From a virus (lineage: Duplodnaviria; Caudoviricetes), in IMG/VR virus record IMGVR_UViG_3300020050_009209: a stretch of 64,000 nt of DNA; one strand, written 5' to 3'. The translations under genes were made by a program, and so were the position numbers. Positions 6,539 to 47,735 of the stretch are shown here, in pieces. Numbering within the stretch: position 1 is the first letter of the stretch; the number at the start of each line of letters is the position of its first letter. Below the pieces are notes generated by a model that saw nothing but the letters and a program-made list of their open reading frames with translations, searched no databases and was not told the origin of the DNA.

Positions 6539-7840
6539 ATGACTCGCGAACGCTCTACTTGGAACCGTAACGAAATTGTCAAGCAAGCGGGTATGGCACG
6601 AACTGCTGACCCCTACCTGATGAATCAGGATCACGTTAAGCAGCAACCTGCCCATGATGCCTATGGCATTGGTGGACCTTCTGAATTTGGCGAAGATGTC
6701 TCGAAGGGGACATGGGAAGCTGAGTATAGCGGGGGCCAAGTCTCTCGTAACGAGATTGGACTACCTGAAATGCGCAAAGACACCTTCAACCACTCTGAGA
6801 AGACTGCAAGTGTTGAGTTCCTTACAAAGAAGGCAGCTCTTTGCGTTGCAATTTCGCGCAGCATTCTCCCAAAGACTGCCTCTGAGTCGGAGATTGAGGA
6901 CCAGTCTCTATCTCTCATGCACCTCCCAGACAGTGAGGTCATGTCGACCTACTCTCGTCTAGCTGCTCAAGGTGAAGAGCAAGAGCAAGAGCAAGAGGAG
7001 CAGCAGGCGAAGCAAGCCGGTGAAGTTCCTCCTCAGTTCAAGAAGAAGGACGACGAAGAGAAGGGCCAAGACCAAGGTCAGCAGAAGCAAGCCCAACAGC
7101 AGCAGATGCAGGCTCAGGTTCAACAGCTACAAGCTCAACTCCAACAGCTACAAGCCCAGCTACAGCAGCAGGGTGGGCAGCAGGCTCAGCAAGGCCAGCA
7201 GGCTCAGCAACAGCAGGTTGCTCAGATGTTGCAGCAAGGCCAGCAGGCTCAGCAAGTTCAAGCTGGACAGCAGGCACAACAGGGCCAGCAAGCTCAGCAG
7301 CAGCAAGTTGCTCAGCAGCAACAGCAGGCTCAGATGCAGCAGCAAGCTCAGCAGCAGCAAGTTGCTCAGCTTGTTCAGCAAGCTCAACAGCAGGGTATGG
7401 ACCCTGTCCAAGCTGCGATGTTTGCAGTGCAGCAGATGCAAGGTCAGCAGCAGCCAATGGCTCAAGACAGCCAGCTGATTGATGACATGCTACTCGATAC
7501 CTCCTCAGCCCCTCCAATGATGATGGGCGAGGGAGACATTGAGATGGATGCCCCCTCCATGGATATGTCCGATGCTCAGCTAGGCCCAGAGGATGATGTC
7601 CTTAAGACCTTGTTTGCAGCTGACCAGGATGACCAGGGGCAGCAGCAACAGGCTCAGCAGCAGAAGCAAGCCCACGCAGTCCGTACAGCCTCAACGCGTA
7701 CCGTAGGGACTCGTCCCACTGGTGGCGTTAGCGCAATTGGTGGGAACCCAGGTGCAAGCTCCAATGACATTGGTAAGCTTTCTTCCCTGTGGGGCAGCTC
7801 GCCTGATGTGCGTGAAGTCTTCGGTATGAACAAGAGCTGA
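6539..7840 (+). CDS. Putative capsid scaffolding protein with poly-Gln region
   Basis: Between protease and decoration/capsid genes; low-complexity Q/A-rich; RBS AAGGA; many [KR]xA motifs. Confidence 0.7.
   Translation: MTRERSTWNRNEIVKQAGMARTADPYLMNQDHVKQQPAHDAYGIGGPSEFGEDVSKGTWEAEYSGGQVSRNEIGLPEMRKDTFNHSEKTASVEFLTKKAALCVAISRSILPKTASESEIEDQSLSLMHLPDSEVMSTYSRLAAQGEEQEQEQEEQQAKQAGEVPPQFKKKDDEEKGQDQGQQKQAQQQQMQAQVQQLQAQLQQLQAQLQQQGGQQAQQGQQAQQQQVAQMLQQGQQAQQVQAGQQAQQGQQAQQQQVAQQQQQAQMQQQAQQQQVAQLVQQAQQQGMDPVQAAMFAVQQMQGQQQPMAQDSQLIDDMLLDTSSAPPMMMGEGDIEMDAPSMDMSDAQLGPEDDVLKTLFAADQDDQGQQQQAQQQKQAHAVRTASTRTVGTRPTGGVSAIGGNPGASSNDIGKLSSLWGSSPDVREVFGMNKS
7078..7455 (+). repeat. CAG/CAA-rich degenerate coding repeat (QQAQQGQQAQQQQVAQ units)
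   Basis: Repeated cagcaggctcagcaaggccagcaggctcagcaa-type units visible in the DNA. Confidence 0.9.
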
Positions 7841-7935
7841 AAAGCTAAAAGACCGACTCAGCCTTAAGTGGCTGCTTAGATGTAGATGCGAATGTAGAAA
7901 AACCCTGCTTTTCCCCGCCTAACAAGGAGTTCGAT

Positions 7936-8583
7936 ATGTCGATGCGCGGTCAAAGCTCGGGTGGATTCAAGGAAACGTCTGGCCGAGTTCAGTTGTTCCA
8001 TGTGGTTACACGCAATAGCGTTGGAGCCCTTGCAGCAGATGCATTCACCCAGGCTAACCCTGTTACCTACACGGGCGCTACAGTTAAGTCTACAACCCTA
8101 GCCGGTATTACCAAGGTCGGCGTTCTAGGTGGTTCGGTTGCGTTTACGCGACCTCAAGTTGGTAACAACCTTACGGGCGGTCCCGCTACTACAGCAGGCC
8201 CAACGTTCTTGGCAGGTATCAAGCCTCTTGGTATCTTCATCAACGACGCCGTGGGTAATGCCTACGAGAACACCCCAGGACCTGCCTCTGGTCGTGGACC
8301 CTACGTCCACGGTTCGGGTACGGTTATCGGAGTCACTCTCTATGAGACCATGATTCTGCAAGCACTAGGCCCTGGCGCCCTAGCTGATCCTCTCACATAC
8401 GCAGCTGGTGACTTGCTCTATGCGTCGGCAAACGGCCTTCTCACGAAGCAGCCAGACGACTCGTATGAGCAGCTTCAATCGGGCGTGTTGTTCGCAACAA
8501 TGCCTACCACCACCGTCATGGGCGTCGTTTTGGCGGCTCCTGATGCAACCAACCCATTGCTCGTGCTGAGCATGCGCGTCTGA
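7936..8583 (+). CDS. Putative head decoration/cement protein
   Basis: Immediately upstream of the capsid gene; PLGIFINDA and YAAGDLLYASANGLLT motifs; strong RBS AAGGAG. Confidence 0.7.
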   Translation: MSMRGQSSGGFKETSGRVQLFHVVTRNSVGALAADAFTQANPVTYTGATVKSTTLAGITKVGVLGGSVAFTRPQVGNNLTGGPATTAGPTFLAGIKPLGIFINDAVGNAYENTPGPASGRGPYVHGSGTVIGVTLYETMILQALGPGALADPLTYAAGDLLYASANGLLTKQPDDSYEQLQSGVLFATMPTTTVMGVVLAAPDATNPLLVLSMRV

Positions 8584-8621
8584 GCGCAACAGCTCTCTAA
8601 GAAAGGATAAAGGCACTAACA

Positions 8622-9494
8622 ATGGTTTCCAACGAAATTAAGCAGCAAATCATCAGCGAGTACATCAAGACTGCGGCAGGTCGCGCAAAGCTTGCTGCCT
8701 CGATGATTCAACCCCTCCGCTCGCGTCGTGACTACACCGCAGTGGGTCGTAAGACCTTCTTGGTGGAGCAACTTCCTGACGGCGCACTTCCAATCTACGA
8801 CAAGGACCCGGACGTTACGGCCTACGTCGTTGGCGAGGAAGGCGAGAACATCCTTGCTATCCAGAAGCCACGCAGAGTGATCTTCCCTCTGTTCGAGGTT
8901 GCCTCGAACCCAGAGATCCCTCTCACCCAGATCAAGGAGCGTCGTTTCGACCTCATTGAGCGCTCGCAAGACCTTGCGAAGGCTCAGATCCAGGCAGCTG
9001 AGGACGAGCGTGTGTTCGCGGTTCTAGACAGCATTGCTGTCTCGGGCTTCGACACTCTAGCAGGGCAGACGAACCCCGACATCAACGTCGTGGCTCCAAT
9101 CTCCCCAAGCGTCCTAGCTGACGCGTTCGCTGAGGTAGAGCGTCACGACCTTCGGGTTGCTCGTATCTACATGAACGCAACCGACTACGCGGACATCCGT
9201 AAGTTCGGTCGCGACATCCTGGACATCGAGTCTCAAGCAGTCCTGCTTAAGACTGGTCTTCAGGCAACCCTCTGGGGCGCCCAGATCATCACAAGCCGCC
9301 TGGTTCCAGCCGGTTTCGTGTACATCTGCGCCGAGCCAGAGAACTTTGGACGTTTCCCCGTTCGTACAGAACTAACGGTTCTCAGTGCGGATGACGCGAA
9401 GGCCCGAACAATTGGGTTCAGTTGCTTTGAAAATATCGGCATTGGTGCCTTCAACCCTCGCGGCCTCACGCGTTTGGTTGTCACCCGAGTCTGA
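8622..9494 (+). CDS. Major capsid protein (HK97 fold)
   Basis: GRAKLAASMIQPLR, RKTFLVEQLPDGALPIYDKD, FEVASNPEI, QAAEDERVF and ATLWGAQII motifs; C-ending codon bias; followed by a strong terminator. Confidence 0.88.
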   Translation: MVSNEIKQQIISEYIKTAAGRAKLAASMIQPLRSRRDYTAVGRKTFLVEQLPDGALPIYDKDPDVTAYVVGEEGENILAIQKPRRVIFPLFEVASNPEIPLTQIKERRFDLIERSQDLAKAQIQAAEDERVFAVLDSIAVSGFDTLAGQTNPDINVVAPISPSVLADAFAEVERHDLRVARIYMNATDYADIRKFGRDILDIESQAVLLKTGLQATLWGAQIITSRLVPAGFVYICAEPENFGRFPVRTELTVLSADDAKARTIGFSCFENIGIGAFNPRGLTRLVVTRV

Positions 9495-9520
9495 TAACCC
9501 AGCCTAGAAATAGGCACCTC

Positions 9521-9554
9521 AAAAGACCATCCTGGGAAACCAGGATGGTCTTTT
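9521..9554 (+). terminator. Intrinsic terminator after the capsid gene
   Basis: AAAAGACCATCCTGG-GAAA-CCAGGATGGTCTTTT perfect hairpin. Confidence 0.9.
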
Positions 9555-9610
9555 GTCATTTGGGGAATGCGTCACTCGGTCAACAGGGAAGAGACCGAAG
9601 TTAAAAGTTC

Positions 9611-9639
9611 TTGACAGACATACTCATGGGCTGTACGAT
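9611..9639 (+). promoter_or_regulatory. Sigma70-type promoter, predicted leaderless transcript
   Basis: TTGACA-N17-TACGAT; ATG 9646 lies 7 nt after the -10 element. Confidence 0.8.
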
Positions 9640-9645
9640 GAGGGA

Positions 9646-11910
9646 ATGATCTCAGAGCCCGAATTGCGACGTCTGTACTTGGAAGAGAAGCTAACAACAA
9701 AGGAAATTGGTCAACGTTTTGGGTTGACTCAGAGTCAAGCTAATCGCCTTCGGATTAGGTACTCCATCCCTACGATTAGTAAGTCGGATCGGCTTGACCT
9801 ACCTCCGCTGACAACAACTCAGAAAGAGGTGTTACTGGGTTCAATTTTTGGAGACGGTAGATTACTCTCAACAGGTTCGGTTACTGCTGGGTACTCGGAG
9901 TTTCACTCAGACAAGCAGTATGAATACCTTCAATGGAAAGCTAGTGTGTGGGGGGCCCATCTCTGTTCGGTACGTGACGGAAATAGCACAAAAAACGGAA
10001 AAACTTACCGTGGTCATATTCTACGTACCCATGGGTGCAGGGAGCTATTTCCCTATTGGAAGAAAGTTTACCCGTCTGGAGCAGGGTACAAGGTTTTCTC
10101 TAAGTTAGACTTGACTGAGTTTACCGCTCTTTCATTAGCTGTGTGGTACTTGGATGACGGTTGCAAGTCGAACAATGGATACATACGACTTGCTGTAACC
10201 CCCGACGAGGAGAGTCAGCAAATTGAGTTAACCTTGTTGCGAGGGTTTGGTTTAGACCCTGTTCTTCACTCAAAAGATGACCCTGCTATTTGGTTACATG
10301 ACCGAGCTAGTATGCTCAGGTTTCTAGACCTAGTAGCCGAGCATATTCCAGTCTCTATGGGGTATAAGTTAGAGTTAGTCCCTCGCTCTCGGGGGGTAGC
10401 CCCACGGGACCTGTTAACGGAAGAAGTCTTACGCGACTCGGTTGGAAAAGGTCGTGGGCTGGATTGGATGGTGCAGTCCACTGGAACTTCCACTACCTCT
10501 GTTCGACGTGCGCTGAAAAAATTCGACCTGACTCTCCCTGAGACCAAACAAGACACATGGGAAGAAGTAAAACAGCGTGTTCAGGTTGGTATTTCGGATG
10601 TCGAGTTAGTGGATGCTCTAGTCAGCCTCCCTCTCCCAAAAGCCCCATCTACCGAAGAGGCTCGTCGTGACTTCGAGAACCTATGTTCCAAGACTTTGGT
10701 CAAGATTGAGGATGGGCTTATTCATGGAGGGGGTAGGGTGGGGTTAACTACCTGTCAGGCGTACTTTCAGTATAGGTATGAAGCAACCAGAGAGAGTAAG
10801 CCTTCGGTTCGACAAGCTTGGTTTGACCCCATTGCAATAACAAAGGCTATCGCATTCCAACGTAAGGTGGGCGACCCTGTTTACCCTGCTAATGTATTCA
10901 GAGCCATCAAGGCCTTGAATGCAAGCCCGTCAAACTTTAGGCCTGCCGTTGCAAAGAAGTTGGTGGAAGAGTTCTCTCCCAAGGGGGGCACTGTTTTAGA
11001 CCCATGTGCTGGGTATGGGGGCCGTGCTGTTGGTGCTATTGCAGCGGGTCGCAAGTACGTTGGAGTAGACCCTCACCCCAATGCAGAGGATGCCTTTGCT
11101 GCTTTGAAGGAGTGTATTACCGGAGACCTTACTTTCTACAACCTTCCATTTGAAGAGGTTCAGTTAGGGGCACTTCAAGCAGACCTGATACTGACGAGTC
11201 CCCCTTACTTTTCTGTTGAACGTTACTCGAACAATCCAACCCAGAGTTGGGTGAGGTACCCAACCTTTGACTTGTGGGTAGACAGGTTTCTGAGGGTACT
11301 TCTTAGCAAGTCATTTAACCATCTGAAGGATGGTGGAGTGATGCTACTCAACGTGGCGGACTCCTACTTGAGTGGGAAGTTGATCCCTCTTGTTCAAACT
11401 TCGTTAGACGTTGCCCAGTCGGTGGGGTTTGTTCATGAGCAGACGCTGGGCATGTTGTTAGGTTCATTTGGTCGACGTAGGAAGGAAGAACCCGTTCTTG
11501 TACTTAGAAAGAACGGTGGTGAGTGTGTTGTTCCTTTCATCTCAGTACCTAAAGGACCCCTTCGTAGGGAGGTCTACAGCTCTACAAAAGTCTCTGAGGG
11601 GGAGTTACGAAACTTGTATGAGGTAGAGCTGCTAACTGACTCCGAAATCGGGCAAAAATTTGGGGTCTCCGATGTGCTTATCTCTCAACAGAGGAAGCGA
11701 TTCAACATCCAAAGTGTTAGCTTTAGGCAAAGAATCGAGAAACGTAATCCATCCCTGTTGCCATTAAGTGGTCTAACCGAGGAGAGGTTACGAGAGTTGT
11801 CTGTAACCTTAAGCGATGGGGACATCGCAAAGCTCTATGGGGTCTCTAAGCCAACAATACGTAACCGTAGGCATCAGTACAAGATACTGACAGAGAGGAA
11901 GTCTAAGTGA
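9646..11910 (+). CDS. LAGLIDADG endonuclease - amino-DNA methyltransferase fusion with HTH-like modules
   Basis: LLGSIFGDG and LAVWYLDDG; VLDPCAGYGGR (SAM binding); LTSPPYF (catalytic); LRRLY/LRNLY...EIGQ.FG HTH-like repeats at both ends. Confidence 0.88.
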   Translation: MISEPELRRLYLEEKLTTKEIGQRFGLTQSQANRLRIRYSIPTISKSDRLDLPPLTTTQKEVLLGSIFGDGRLLSTGSVTAGYSEFHSDKQYEYLQWKASVWGAHLCSVRDGNSTKNGKTYRGHILRTHGCRELFPYWKKVYPSGAGYKVFSKLDLTEFTALSLAVWYLDDGCKSNNGYIRLAVTPDEESQQIELTLLRGFGLDPVLHSKDDPAIWLHDRASMLRFLDLVAEHIPVSMGYKLELVPRSRGVAPRDLLTEEVLRDSVGKGRGLDWMVQSTGTSTTSVRRALKKFDLTLPETKQDTWEEVKQRVQVGISDVELVDALVSLPLPKAPSTEEARRDFENLCSKTLVKIEDGLIHGGGRVGLTTCQAYFQYRYEATRESKPSVRQAWFDPIAITKAIAFQRKVGDPVYPANVFRAIKALNASPSNFRPAVAKKLVEEFSPKGGTVLDPCAGYGGRAVGAIAAGRKYVGVDPHPNAEDAFAALKECITGDLTFYNLPFEEVQLGALQADLILTSPPYFSVERYSNNPTQSWVRYPTFDLWVDRFLRVLLSKSFNHLKDGGVMLLNVADSYLSGKLIPLVQTSLDVAQSVGFVHEQTLGMLLGSFGRRRKEEPVLVLRKNGGECVVPFISVPKGPLRREVYSSTKVSEGELRNLYEVELLTDSEIGQKFGVSDVLISQQRKRFNIQSVSFRQRIEKRNPSLLPLSGLTEERLRELSVTLSDGDIAKLYGVSKPTIRNRRHQYKILTERKSK

Positions 11911-11957
11911 CCCCAGGGATCTTCTTGTAGCCTACCTAACATATAGGAGAGTGACTC

Positions 11958-12968
11958 ATGGCATTACTAGATGCAGATGCAACGTTAGCTGGAGGGGCAA
12001 CGCAAGCAGTAGACGCAGCTCTACTCTATACGTTGGATTCGGTTTTTGGGGGAGGTGCAACCCAAACAGGAGATGCTACCCTTCTCTACGACGTATCTTC
12101 AACGATGGTTGGTGGGGCAGACCAGGTATCGATTCCGACCCTTCTGCTAGACTCTCTAACAGGGACCCTAACGGCAAGTGGGGATCTCGTTGGAAGCGTT
12201 TTCTATGCCGGGGCTTTGGACTCAACGGCAGCTGGAGGTGCCTCTGTAGCGGTAGACCTACTTATGGGCGAGTTGGGAGCTGTAGACTGTAGCGGATCTG
12301 CAACCGTTGTAGCGGACCCTACCTCTCTCATGGCTTTGGGGTTGACTCTAGAAGCTGCGTCCTACTTGGTGACCCCTTCCTTGTGGAGTTCTCTAGGGGT
12401 ACCCCTACCTTTGGTGTATGGAAGTGATACGAACTTCAGTTCTACCATGGGTCCAAACCTCATCACCTCTACTGTGCGTAGCCCAGCGTTCTCTACGAGA
12501 GGGACCGGGAAGTTTTCAGCCGAGGGTAAGCTTACGGGTAGGCAGGGGTCTATTGACCTTTGGGTTACAACTGGGGCGACAGGATCAGCTAGGTCCTTGA
12601 TTGTACTTACCAACGGGGTAACCAATAACTTCCTAGAGATCCTCCTCGACACAAACAACAGAGTTAGTCTGATTCACCGTTCTGAGGCGACCGCCATTGT
12701 AGCTCAAGCTACTGCGCAGTTTGCAGCGGAGCCAGTTGGAACTAGAATGAATCTAAGGTATGTTTGGGAATCTACTCAGGCAGTTGACGTGTCCACTAGA
12801 TTCGCGGTACTGTACAAAAACAACGAGAAGATAGCCACTTGGGCGACTGACCCAACGGCAGCTTGGGATAGTTTCTTCCCCACCCTTATCTACGTAGGAG
12901 TTGGAAGCGTGGCTACGGGCGGAGACTTCAACGGCACCGTAGACAAGGTTCAAGTTGGTACTGCCTGA
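11958..12968 (+). CDS. Putative fibre/decoration protein: N-terminal DATLxGxA repeats, C-terminal LamG/ConA-like domain
   Basis: Repeats shared with 22247 and 23394; QGSIDLWV...FNGTVDKVQV pattern; RBS AGGAG. Confidence 0.55.
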   Translation: MALLDADATLAGGATQAVDAALLYTLDSVFGGGATQTGDATLLYDVSSTMVGGADQVSIPTLLLDSLTGTLTASGDLVGSVFYAGALDSTAAGGASVAVDLLMGELGAVDCSGSATVVADPTSLMALGLTLEAASYLVTPSLWSSLGVPLPLVYGSDTNFSSTMGPNLITSTVRSPAFSTRGTGKFSAEGKLTGRQGSIDLWVTTGATGSARSLIVLTNGVTNNFLEILLDTNNRVSLIHRSEATAIVAQATAQFAAEPVGTRMNLRYVWESTQAVDVSTRFAVLYKNNEKIATWATDPTAAWDSFFPTLIYVGVGSVATGGDFNGTVDKVQVGTA

Positions 12969-12983
12969 CAGAGGGAGCTTCCT

Positions 12984-13076
12984 ATGCCACCGTTGAATAT
13001 CTGGACAATCGGACCATTTGTGTGGTGGTTGCATGTCACAGACGCTACTTTACGTCTCTGGGGTTTGAAGAAGTGA
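12984..13076 (+). CDS. Possible 30-aa Trp-rich small protein (MPPLNIWTIGPFVWWLHVTDATLRLWGLKK)
   Basis: GAGGGAG precedes the ATG; below the ORF-track length cutoff. Confidence 0.3.
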   Translation: MPPLNIWTIGPFVWWLHVTDATLRLWGLKK

Positions 13077-13312
13077 CCAGTGCAGTGGCTGGGCTGCAAC
13101 AACTACTCCTCTGAGCTTGTCTACTATAGGTCCAGCATGGGATCCGTACTCACCTGAGGCCCCGCAGTGAGTAGTTCCCAAGACTTATTTTCACCCAGTC
13201 GAACTTTTCTGGTTGATTTCGCTAGCGCGATAAATGTACTTGGGTTATATAGTAGGAGTACTTAGGCATTGTTGATGCCAAATATCGTAAGATATCGAAA
13301 GGACAAGAGAAA

Positions 13313-13714
13313 ATGACAAAGACAGAGTTGATTTCGGCCCTCGCAGCAGAGATGGAAAGCAGCAACAACAAGTCCACGAAGGCGACCATCCGCGCTTTCC
13401 TCAAGGCACTTGAGGCTGTTTCGTGTAAGTCCCTTAAGAAGGACGGAGCGGTTACAATTCCTGGTCTCGTGAAGCTACTTGTCCTAAAGGTGGGCTCGAA
13501 GCCAGAGCGTAAGGCTCGGAATCCTGCGACTGGCAAGGAGATGATTGTCCCCGCGAAGGGTCCGGGCAAGAAGCTGAAGGCTCGATTTGTCCGTTCGCTG
13601 AAGGTCGGTGTTGGGCAGATTGCGGCCCCACCGAAGAAGGCTTCGACGGCTAAGCCTGCGGCTGCAAAGGCTGCAAAGCCTGCAAAGCCTGCGGCAGCTG
13701 CTGTCTCGAACTGA
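13313..13714 (+). CDS. HU family DNA-binding protein with Lys/Ala/Pro-rich histone-like tail
   Basis: MTKTELISALA...VTIPGLVKL...RKARNPATGKEMIVPAK; C-terminal AKPAAAKAAKPAKP. Confidence 0.92.
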   Translation: MTKTELISALAAEMESSNNKSTKATIRAFLKALEAVSCKSLKKDGAVTIPGLVKLLVLKVGSKPERKARNPATGKEMIVPAKGPGKKLKARFVRSLKVGVGQIAAPPKKASTAKPAAAKAAKPAKPAAAAVSN

Positions 13715-13734
13715 AGTCGGTCCGAACTCTCCTC

Positions 13735-13770
13735 AAAACCCCTCTCCCTCTAATAGGGGAGAGGGGTTTT
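13735..13770 (+). terminator. Intrinsic terminator after HU
   Basis: AAAACCCCTCTCCCT...AGGGGAGAGGGGTTTT hairpin with T tract. Confidence 0.88.
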
Positions 13771-13779
13771 GCTTTCCGA

Positions 13780-13791
13780 TAATCTACTTGT
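13780..13791 (+). promoter_or_regulatory. Putative phage late promoter (TAATCTACTTGT)
   Basis: Copy of a motif recurring before many structural genes; directly follows a terminator. Confidence 0.55.
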
Positions 13792-13823
13792 CATACCCAC
13801 CTTATAGATGGAGGTTACGGTAA

Positions 13824-45432: not shown

Positions 45433-45476
45433 ACTATTGTCTGGTCAAGTGAGTCCATCTGGTGTACTACTTAGGT

Positions 45477-47735
45477 GTGGTCGCCAAGTCCAGTACGAGT
45501 ACCCAGGAGATTCTAGACTCTTTTCACGAAGATCACCCGCTTAAGTGGGTGGCCGTAAAGTTTAGAATCAGTCCGAATCGCCTTCGTGATGCATGGAAGA
45601 CTCATTACGGGGAAGAGGCGTTTGAGGAGAGAGTAAGAAAGCATCAAAAAGGTGCTCCACTAGGGTCTGCTGACCTTGCCATCGAGGTGTTTAATACAGA
45701 TGAGCCCTTTAAGGCTCTGGCAAAACGCCTTGGTATGAGCCCAAATACTCTCCGAAAGATTTGGGTAGCTCGTTTTGGAGCCGAAGCATTTCATGCTAGG
45801 GGTAAAGCGTCCCAAGCAAAAGGAGCGGTATCCTACGGGGTTAGGTCGACCGGACTCGCAAAAAAGAAGAACTTTGTCTATGAGCCGTGTTCAGGGTGCA
45901 ACACCCTTGTGTCTCTCACTAAAGTGCAGCTTGCAGCCCTAACCAAAGTAGTTTGTGAGACTTGCCTAGGTATGGATTCCAAGTGCCCTGTCTGCGGTCT
46001 AGGCTGCATGGGGGTAAAGGGAATCGCTATGCACTTTGCACAGGTAAAGGACGAGGCTCACATTAACTACCAAGAAGAAAAGGAAGAAGCGAAGTGGTCT
46101 GGCCTAGTCGAAGACAGACATTATGTGACTTGCAAGGAGTGTGGGTTTCGAGGGGTGGCTCTAAATAACCACTTAAAACTCCATGGTTTAGATGCAAGCA
46201 GCTACCGAACAAAGTTTAATGGTGCGCTAGTAACTTCGTCCTTCTCTGAGGAGAAGAGACTGAAGTCCTTAATGCCATCCGCGAGTCGAAGAGCTTACCA
46301 TTGGAGCCCAGAAGTTCTGAGGCAGTTCACAGATGAGAAAGGTCGTGTAATCGTTGCTGAGGCAGCCTTGGCATTAGGGGCTTCCCCACTTACCGTACTC
46401 CAGTACTGTCGGTCTTTGGAGCTACCTACACGTAATAAGTTGGCTTGGCAGAGAGTTGTTTTGGATCAAGCCAGTAAGGCGTTTGAGGCACCTTATGTGT
46501 GGGAGTGGTCTGACCCCAGAATAGTCAACCCAAGTACTGGGAGAGTTCTCAACTTTGACGGATACTTCCCTAGCCTAAATCTTATAGTTGAGGCTCATGG
46601 TGACCAGCACTATAGGTATGCTGAGGCTTGGCATGGCTCTATGGAGAATTTTCATGAGTTACGGGAGAGGGACCTACTCAAAAAGCAACGAGCAGAGGAG
46701 CTTGGGTTTCGGGTTTTGGTGGTGCGCCCAGTTGACCCAACGCATAGTGTAACTTTCTGGAAGAGACTTAGTCCTGTAGACCCTGTTGTTTTGGCGAATC
46801 AAATTGACCAGGTTGTAACCACCTTACGTCAAGGGGTATTTCCTATGCCCAAACCCCTTGACGCTGAGCTTAAGAAAGCCTTGACTAGACTTCAGGGTAC
46901 AAGTGTGGTTGTAAACTCGGACCTCGTTATTTACCCTTACTCTGTAAGAGGTACCTCTGCTTGTGCCTCATTTTTTCCCGCTAGGTACCAAGCTAAACAC
47001 AAGGCCGTAGATAAGAGTGTATGGGAAGCCTGGCATGATGACGACCTACTCAGGAAAGCTATCAAGTTGCAGTTGGACTCCGGGCATCCTACGACCCCTG
47101 AGAGGGTCTTAAAAGCTCTTGTAATGTATCATCGAACCCCGTCTGTGTTTCGTCCTGCCGTAGCAAAGTACGTCTATCAAACTTACGGGAACAAAGGGGT
47201 AGTCTGGGACCCGTGTGCTGGGTATGGAGGTAGACTTCTAGGGGCTCTTGCTGCTGGAGTCTCTACTTACATCGGAACGGACATTGAACCAGCTACAGTT
47301 GAAGGTAATCTTGCTATCGCAAAACACTTGGGGGTAAGTGGTTCCTACAAGGTTGAGCTTCAGGCAGCCGAGGAATTCGACCCTGGAGTACCTCTCGACC
47401 TCGTGTTCACCTCTCCTCCCTACTTTGACCTGGAGACTTACGGTAAAGCTTCTTTAAGGGCTAGTGTTGGGTATGGCTCGCCTCAGGGTTGGGTAGAGAA
47501 CTTCCTTCGTCCAGTGATGACCAAAGCTATGGAACGTTTGAAGCCAGGAGGGCACCTTGTGTTGAATTTACCATATAAGCCTGTACTTGGGACTCGATTG
47601 GATGTAGAAGCTACCCGAGAGGCTAAGGTGCTTGGGTTGAGAGAGTTGCCAACACTTTGGATGCCTATTCGTACCTTCAAAGGTACGATGAAGGGCGAGC
47701 CCATACTAGTTTGGCAGAAAGAGCAAATCCCATGA
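45477..47735 (+). CDS. HTH/Zn-finger PD-(D/E)XK endonuclease - amino-DNA methyltransferase fusion
   Basis: Two HTH-like repeats (SPN.LR..W...G.EAF); CxxC fingers; LNFDGYFPSLNLIVEAHGDQH; VWDPCAGYGGR; FTSPPYFDLE; GGTGTA-N10-GTG start. Confidence 0.88.
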   Translation: MVAKSSTSTQEILDSFHEDHPLKWVAVKFRISPNRLRDAWKTHYGEEAFEERVRKHQKGAPLGSADLAIEVFNTDEPFKALAKRLGMSPNTLRKIWVARFGAEAFHARGKASQAKGAVSYGVRSTGLAKKKNFVYEPCSGCNTLVSLTKVQLAALTKVVCETCLGMDSKCPVCGLGCMGVKGIAMHFAQVKDEAHINYQEEKEEAKWSGLVEDRHYVTCKECGFRGVALNNHLKLHGLDASSYRTKFNGALVTSSFSEEKRLKSLMPSASRRAYHWSPEVLRQFTDEKGRVIVAEAALALGASPLTVLQYCRSLELPTRNKLAWQRVVLDQASKAFEAPYVWEWSDPRIVNPSTGRVLNFDGYFPSLNLIVEAHGDQHYRYAEAWHGSMENFHELRERDLLKKQRAEELGFRVLVVRPVDPTHSVTFWKRLSPVDPVVLANQIDQVVTTLRQGVFPMPKPLDAELKKALTRLQGTSVVVNSDLVIYPYSVRGTSACASFFPARYQAKHKAVDKSVWEAWHDDDLLRKAIKLQLDSGHPTTPERVLKALVMYHRTPSVFRPAVAKYVYQTYGNKGVVWDPCAGYGGRLLGALAAGVSTYIGTDIEPATVEGNLAIAKHLGVSGSYKVELQAAEEFDPGVPLDLVFTSPPYFDLETYGKASLRASVGYGSPQGWVENFLRPVMTKAMERLKPGGHLVLNLPYKPVLGTRLDVEATREAKVLGLRELPTLWMPIRTFKGTMKGEPILVWQKEQIP

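Follow-up and report, generated by a model that had tools for sequence, protein, structure and literature searches.

The 64,000-nucleotide stretch of phage DNA analysed here (the window, taken from the IMG/VR record IMGVR_UViG_3300020050_009209) carries, directly after its major capsid gene, a single open reading frame (ORF) termed P0001, in which a LAGLIDADG homing endonuclease is joined to a DNA amino-methyltransferase (MTase). The comparisons described below lead us to regard P0001 as very probably a mobile and active nuclease-methyltransferase fusion. As the best overall explanation we favour, with moderate confidence, a homing cassette in which the nuclease tethers a protective MTase at a hotspot beside the capsid gene. 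The source record is 379,936 bp in length and is bounded by direct terminal repeats, and the virus is therefore a huge phage.

Architecture and conservation of the fusion

An initial reading made from the sequence alone had described one ORF containing helix-turn-helix (HTH) modules, a double-motif LAGLIDADG domain and an intact amino-MTase, and all four of the motifs it had quoted are present at the places it gave (Table 1). The reading frame is open over 9553-11910 without a break, and the ATG at 9646 agrees with the N-termini of 30 aligned homologues. Both of the Pfam families that had been proposed for the protein are matched: LAGLIDADG_2 (PF03161) covers aa 60-216 of P0001 (E 2.6e-16, 60.5 bits against a cut-off of 25), while N6_N4_Mtase (PF01555) is hit as two permuted segments (E 5.7e-12; 46.5 bits, cut-off 26.7), and a PHROGs search agrees with these domain calls. 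The C-terminal HTH pair is missing from family members of about 630 aa, as seen in the alignment.

Structure prediction with AlphaFold2, based on an alignment of 31 sequences, gave a model of high quality (pLDDT 89.8, pTM 0.76) with a LAGLIDADG fold in the N-terminal half and a Rossmann methyltransferase fold in the C-terminal half. Using Foldseek, the former was matched to I-SceI and I-WcaI (E 3e-9 to 2e-8, target TM 0.71-0.74) and the latter to Rossmann methyltransferases dependent on S-adenosylmethionine (SAM), for example Trm11 and TrmN. The best fold matches of the MTase half are tRNA m2G enzymes, and Foldseek on the whole model does not separate a DNA enzyme from an RNA enzyme; by sequence, the nearest entries in the PDB belong to DNA methyltransferases, 2zie (6e-8) standing ahead of weaker matches to an N4-cytosine MTase, M.TaqI and M.RsrI. 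The order of the motifs, I ahead of IV, is that of the gamma type, and an SPPY-type motif IV points to N4-methylcytosine (m4C). As predicted from these two features, the product is probably m4C and possibly N6-methyladenine (m6A). By its motifs, fold and pattern of mobility P0001 belongs with the monomeric LAGLIDADG enzymes, its cleavage activity being predicted, and by motifs and fold its C-terminal half is an amino-methyltransferase.

A word-indexed search returned 58 relatives, nearly all with both Pfam domains, on contigs of up to 548 kb, and in all the fusion is shared by over 100 relatives from metagenomes. The possibility that P0001 arose through misassembly, or through two adjacent genes being read as one, is exceedingly small: the ORF is continuous, the structural model is confident across the junction between the domains, and, because the same continuous layout recurs on dozens of independent contigs of different sources, the fusion is not an assembly artefact. 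Nor have the catalytic motifs been lost, as they might be in a dead enzyme; both nuclease aspartates, DPCAGYGGR and TSPPYF are intact. Among 31 aligned members G69-D70, W167, D170-D171-G172, DPCAGYGGR and TSPPY are invariant, the last two being invariant also in a second alignment of 20 members, and D70 and D171 are unchanged in 86 LAGLIDADG domains (24 free-standing and 62 fused). As judged from these alignments, both catalytic centres are shown to be under purifying selection.

In a phylogeny of the nuclease domain a single clade (100/100) holds the free-standing genes, and the fusions stand on the opposite side in three deep lineages. The fused state is therefore old and stable rather than a recent accident. 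The tree is unrooted, and lacking an outgroup it leaves the ancestry of fused and free-standing forms unordered. One relative (L001 5137-8826, in LR745208.1) is a protein of 1229 aa with two LAGLIDADG domains, the MTase module and a cysteine-rich tail; its first LAGLIDADG domain is degenerate (LLGNG, FLDRG) and its second is intact.

Table 1. Features of the fusion, its surroundings and its paralogue; coordinates are positions of the whole 64,000-nt window, with the listed parts on the + strand
Feature	Position	Strand	Basis or remark
Major capsid gene	8622-9494	+	Pfam Phage_capsid, E 5e-7; likely region of the nuclease target
Left co-conversion-like tract	9347-9576	+	Dense differences from L007
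Capsid terminator hairpin	9520-9555	+	Folding -30.2 kcal/mol, z -5.5
Cassette left boundary	~9570-9577		Just 3' of the terminator hairpin; L007 and X2 homology stops at 9570-9576
Promoter-like TTGACA-17-TACGAT	9611-9639	+	TTGACA 9611-9616, TACGAT 9634-9639; 10/12 consensus matches
P0001 fusion ORF	9646-11910	+	754 aa; single uninterrupted ORF
N-terminal helix-turn-helix	9655-9759	+	Pfam Sigma70_r4, E 1.8e-6; helices aa 4-38 in the model
Monomeric double-motif LAGLIDADG nuclease domain	9814-10371	+	Pfam LAGLIDADG_2 and Foldseek
LAGLIDADG motif 1, LLGSIFGDG	9832-9858	+	Catalytic D70
LAGLIDADG motif 2, LAVWYLDDG	10135-10161	+	Catalytic D171
Helical HTH-like linker, nuclease to methyltransferase	10402-10689	+	Model helices aa 253-348; HTH_23 or HTH_DeoR matches in relatives
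Amino-methyltransferase module	10708-11523	+	Pfam N6_N4_Mtase, two permuted pieces
MTase motif I, DPCAGYGGR	10999-11025	+	SAM-binding
MTase motif IV, TSPPYF	11194-11211	+	Catalytic
Two C-terminal HTH modules	11587-11880	+	Pfam HTH_23, E 1.4e-8; similar to the N-terminal HTH
Right boundary and right co-conversion-like tract	11914-12209	+	L007 homology (99%) resumes at 11914
P0059, paralogous fusion	45462-47735	+	HTHs, ROS/MucR-type zinc fingers, Vsr-like homing nuclease, same MTase module

Mobility of the slot after the capsid gene

The sequence-only reading had placed the fusion as an insertion right after the major capsid gene, and this is borne out by polymorphism of both the presence/absence and the replacement kind, by clean indels and by co-conversion-like gradients in the flanks. 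The comparison set consisted of the 80 best of 577 confirmed IMG/VR capsid loci, many of them on contigs of 300-530 kb, and the slot was classified in 75 loci, namely the 74 with enough downstream sequence and the window. No LAGLIDADG gene is present in 36 of the 75; in nuclease-less slots the capsid gene is followed by ordinary genes (HU, UDG, lysozyme and unknowns). A free-standing HTH-LAGLIDADG-HTH gene of 309-333 aa, 28-33% identical to that of the window, occupies 21, and other methyltransferase or zinc-finger proteins occupy 4. The same fusion recurs at the same locus in 12 of the 75, and in 2 more it stands in tandem with the free-standing gene (L030 5519-8886, L032 6956-10331), an arrangement that looks like the insertion of one cassette next to the other.

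The near-identical contig L007 is particularly informative. It is 97% identical to the window over 7820-9576 and 99% identical over 11914-13801, and between these shared flanks the window has a 2337-bp fusion cassette where L007 has 1037 bp encoding a different LAGLIDADG protein of 327 aa (31% identity). The differences in the flanks are concentrated towards the cassette. In the capsid gene 20 of the 23 differences fall within the final 148 nt (P = 4e-13), all 20 of them synonymous and the two capsid proteins identical; in the right flank, of 1888 nt, the first 296 nt hold 13 of the 19 differences (P = 4e-7). A separate mosaic patch was also observed further upstream, where 10 differences between the window and L007 fall within 124 nt (8343-8466) of a 215-aa gene (7936-8583).

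Public contigs from four sequencing runs add two further alleles of the slot. In none of the four is the fusion cassette itself covered, and the two RNA-library sets span the capsid gene or flanks only, which makes them uninformative on expression of the fusion. A contig of run X1 carries the L007-type allele in a near-identical background. In run X2, an 11.4-kb contig joins 9570 to 12126 with 9 nt between, and the nuclease gene is absent. The L007 variants of the left tract are common to contigs of X1, X2 and X15; because X1 and X2 share those at 9347-9473, it is the capsid 3' end of the window that is the odd one out, as expected if this end was acquired together with the cassette. A donor for the capsid 3' tract of the window did not emerge among the 80 loci, L007 (87%) being the best match. 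Clean indels are seen in other pairs of loci, L035 having 17 bp where L032 has a 2417-bp fusion cassette and L009 having 12 bp where L010 has a 975-bp free-standing gene. Furthermore, among pairs of loci with unlike slot content, divergence is greater over the final 220 nt of the capsid gene than over its first 650, an excess that the single pair with like content does not show. An AGY/TCN serine switch at 9420-9422 was considered as a capsid-codon marker of the fusion and was rejected, as it occurs in all slot classes. Last, the GC content of the cassette (0.46-0.50) lies below that of the capsid gene (0.55-0.58). Polymorphism, replacement, clean indels, flank gradients and the GC shift are the classical marks of homing with co-conversion, and in these sequence comparisons they show the fusion to be a mobile cassette sitting directly after the capsid gene.

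These same observations bear upon a very different account, in which P0001 is a domesticated, non-mobile core gene whose LAGLIDADG fold provides DNA recognition for an epigenetic or packaging MTase. Such an account might draw on the finding of the fusion at an identical location in distant relatives (421, 485 and 548 kb), on the distant member P0176, which follows a capsid gene whose protein is 75% identical, and on the separation of fused and free-standing domains into stable clades. The first three relatives to be compared (LR745208.1, P0004 and P0021) did all carry the fusion, as a fixed core gene would; the 80 capsid loci, however, reveal a polymorphic slot, and about half of the closely related loci are without the gene. 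In addition, a near-identical genome holds another gene at this place and a public contig holds nothing, the GC content of the cassette departs from that of its flanks, and both catalytic aspartates are invariant, unlike those of domesticated LAGLIDADG proteins. We consider the core-gene account to be very improbable.

The capsid gene itself is extremely conserved. Across the set its protein is 92-100% identical while its DNA is just 72-82% identical, and it must therefore be under very strong purifying selection; third-position (synonymous) diversity peaks in its final 45 codons. In the explanation we favour, the slot after this gene is a homing hotspot in a clade of phages of 300-550 kb that is widespread.

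With regard to expression, the sequence-only reading had given the fusion its own promoter directly after the capsid terminator. The strong hairpin and the TTGACA-17-TACGAT site on which that claim was based are both present, but the site is no rarer in shuffles of the region, which give equally many promoter-like sites, and as such it amounts to a plausible promoter. The terminator scan does not list the hairpin, its T-run being paired with an A-run, and its strength was taken from folding; L007 carries a compensatory A-T to G-C change at 9524/9551. TACGAT ends 6 nt upstream of the ATG of P0001, and transcription from this site would for that reason yield a near-leaderless message. A CTTGAC motif with a -10-like hexamer was likewise observed less than 10 nt before the start codon in nuclease cassettes of this slot and of the second slot described below (L086, L039, L063, L064, L094 and L104), and sites of this kind before cassette starts suggest leaderless-type expression.

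Several neighbouring genes may be mentioned. An HU-like DNA-binding protein with an Ala/Lys/Pro-rich tail is encoded at 13313-13714, and in relatives the place of its homologues downstream of the capsid gene varies. A 433-aa protein encoded upstream of that gene, at 6539-7840, has long Gln/Ala-rich low-complexity repeats and is scaffold-like in appearance. In L004 (108-2858) and L006 (1-2544) a gene of 916-932 aa, three genes upstream of the capsid gene, contains an intein (Hom_end_hint and LAGLIDADG_3).

Partners and role of the methyltransferase module

When the MTase module alone was used in an exhaustive profile search, 1,789 cluster representatives were matched at E <=1e-30. Among the top 150 matches the module is nearly always C-terminal, and the N-terminal part is very variable in length. 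Scanning 73 representatives with Pfam identified LAGLIDADG_2 in 27, LAGLIDADG_3 in 4 and Endonuclease_7 in one, and most of the representatives other than those with LAGLIDADG_2 have HTH or zinc-finger modules. Custom domain hidden Markov models, applied to the 208 closest module-bearing proteins, detected a LAGLIDADG domain in 105 and a Vsr-like domain in 8; fewer than 70 residues precede the module in 14 of the 208, some of which are fragments. On a tree of the module the type of N-terminal partner changes often; well-supported branches require the LAGLIDADG label to change no fewer than 21 times, a count that is inflated by truncated proteins. A variable region of the size of a recognition domain is not seen in alignments of the module, which is conserved throughout and has fused DNA-binding modules ahead of it.

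The same module occurs once more in the window, in P0059, its sole paralogue in the genome (35% identity over the module). P0059 occupies a second slot, bounded upstream by a 1429-aa gene with its hairpin and downstream by the gene of a UvrD-type helicase. Its nuclease domain found no match in Pfam or in a PDB sequence search; it matches PHROG homing-endonuclease families (PHROG 9084 at 1.7e-5), and D366, E377, Q382, H383 and K407 are invariant within it. The model of this domain (pLDDT 87) has weak Foldseek matches to Vsr (E 2e-3) and to I-Bth0305I (3r3p, probability 0.98-0.99), all of them above E 1e-3, and we take it to be a Vsr-like homing nuclease on a match which is weak but consistent. 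Across 36 related loci the second slot is empty, holds a nuclease without the MTase (11 loci, ~1.7 kb), or, in just the window and L087, is filled by the fusion, and the MTase-less forms stop exactly at the start of the linker to the MTase. The distant member P0113 sits before the helicase and P0176, as described above, after the capsid gene; since these distant members occupy the same two slots, the phenomenon evidently belongs to this phage clade. A domain of the phrog_13389 type (phrog_13389/28936) is found after the capsid gene without the module in L026 (6995-8929) and is joined to the module in L033 (7041-9629), P0047 and P0049. BLASTP found no match between P0059 and the N-terminal domain of L033, and the phrog_13389/28936 domain is possibly a third nuclease type. 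Beyond the window the genome also contains a free-standing LAGLIDADG_2 ORF (351 aa) and two N6_N4 methyltransferase genes (G000:C1:140342-140770; C1:121471-122361; C1:158115-158399).

How such a cassette might operate can be postulated as follows. During co-infection the nuclease would cut a cassette-less allele in or near the capsid 3' end and the intergenic junction, and repair off the carrier genome would copy the cassette along with roughly 150-300 bp of flanking sequence to either side of it. The MTase would meanwhile be tethered to DNA by the nuclease and HTH modules, and the tethered MTase would methylate carrier DNA at or near the nuclease site, blocking cleavage there. The outcome would be a rare-cutting, single-chain selfish element resembling a restriction-modification system. 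That the MTase has a protective role for carrier DNA is, on the present comparisons, a possibility we take seriously but stop short of expecting. Tethered protection is favoured because the module has no variable recognition region, because it rarely occurs without a DNA-binding part, and because it is fused in frame to unrelated homing nucleases. A broader proposal would see here a distinct selfish 'homing-modification' class, in which a module tethered by the nuclease methylates a long target on the carrier, conferring immunity without sequence change while unmethylated rival alleles are cut and either converted or destroyed, so that the module would be a general add-on making homing endonucleases into rare-cutting restriction-modification weapons; this we put forward as an idea and regard as rather doubtful.

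Several observations weigh against methylation-based protection. Compared with its nearest relatives, the carrier allele already has 20 synonymous changes in the capsid gene as well as changes in the intergenic region, and sequence change near the junction could by itself confer immunity, in which case methylation would be unneeded to explain self-protection. The whole MTase module is strongly conserved, which also fits a fixed short specificity and thus genome-wide methylation. Free-standing relatives in the same slot do without any MTase, and near-identical flanks without the fusion occur in contigs of two DNA runs, from which it follows that the MTase is dispensable to the phage.

Some of these points would be readily accommodated were the MTase a cargo, one that methylates a short motif genome-wide against host restriction or other nucleases, independently of the LAGLIDADG site, with the fusion ensuring co-inheritance only. 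A fixed specificity would fit the high conservation of the module and its want of a variable recognition region, the sequence relatives of the module are ordinary DNA N4/N6 methyltransferases, the module has been swapped among N-terminal partners many times on its own tree, and further methyltransferases are present in the same genome. There is precedent as well in the 936-type lactococcal phages, whose orphan methyltransferases share slots with HNH genes and protect against restriction (PMC4190342). Yet a cargo needs no fusion, and one genome has the module in frame with homing nucleases of at least two unrelated folds; proteins in which the module lacks an added DNA-binding part are rare (the 14 of 208 noted above), and near-identical phages without the module occur in several metagenomes. 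On balance a pure cargo seems to us possible if somewhat unlikely, and the alternative put forward in the sequence-only reading, an endonuclease that spreads by carrying an anti-restriction MTase, is equally alive.

It is also conceivable that the MTase domain regulates or anchors the nuclease without protecting anything, for instance through SAM sensing or as a DNA clamp that lengthens the recognition site or times the cut. In Type IIG enzymes SAM stimulates cleavage, P0001 is a single chain with several DNA-binding modules, and 3 of the 73 family members have weak Eco57I-type Pfam matches. The invariance of TSPPY and of the SAM-binding motifs nonetheless argues for real methyl transfer, and the free-standing relatives presumably cut without the module, leaving a regulatory or anchoring role improbable.

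Significance and relation to known systems

Free-standing homing endonucleases are thought to spare their own genome through differences in target sequence, and no restriction-modification enzyme is known to employ a LAGLIDADG nuclease. Here, in a globally distributed clade of huge phages, a single MTase module is fused in frame to homing nucleases of two unrelated folds, and the two slots concerned are polymorphic and adjoin major structural genes. Should the MTase protect its carrier, as in the explanation we favour, it would represent a new means by which selfish nucleases become immune to themselves, would link homing endonucleases naturally to restriction-modification, and would bear on competition between phages. 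From a practical standpoint, the fusion offers a natural rare-cutting nuclease and possibly a site-tethered MTase, and as such could be useful as a scaffold for directing DNA methylation to chosen targets or for cutting that is gated by methylation. Three alleles that occur in nature (fusion, free nuclease, empty) provide ready substrates for assays.

No description of a homing-endonuclease-methyltransferase fusion was found in the literature, and the relevant comparisons are with systems that share some of its features. Huge phages are rich in homing endonucleases (PMC12880540), and use of a jumbo-phage intron endonuclease against co-infecting relatives has been demonstrated experimentally for PhiPA3 gp210, which unlike the fusion is intron-encoded and has no methyltransferase (PMC11620839). 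Lactococcal phages of the 936 type have a variable slot, between conserved structural/packaging genes, that is shared by orphan methyltransferases and HNH endonucleases, but as separate genes and of different families (PMC4190342).

Closest in fold are I-SceI and I-WcaI (PF03161), whose single chain, like that of P0001, bears two LAGLIDADG motifs with catalytic aspartates. They are encoded within introns and are about 230 aa long, whereas P0001 is free-standing and flanked by HTHs, with a 270-aa methyltransferase and extra HTHs. For P0059 the fold likeness to I-Bth0305I (EDxHD, 3r3p) and Vsr is weak, and P0059 adds zinc fingers, HTHs and the MTase module. In genomic habit the cassette resembles the Seg and Mob elements of T4, free-standing GIY-YIG or HNH homing endonucleases without modification activity whose immunity usually comes from target sequence differences. 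It shares with them an intergenic position beside a conserved gene, a patchy distribution among close relatives and flank co-conversion; it differs in having a LAGLIDADG nuclease (Vsr-like in the second slot) and a fused methyltransferase. In domain content, the nearest counterparts are the Type IIG/IIC enzymes (MmeI, BpuSI, Eco57I), which combine a PD-(D/E)XK nuclease with a C-terminal recognition domain, recognise short sites and serve cell defence. They too are single polypeptides uniting a nuclease with an amino-MTase whose motif I comes ahead of motif IV. P0001, by contrast, has a homing-fold nuclease and sits in a mobile phage slot, and as its nuclease fold is the wrong one and a recognition domain was not found (the C-terminus consisting of two HTHs, or of nothing in the 630-aa members) it is not itself a Type IIG/IIC enzyme; it may, however, work like one.

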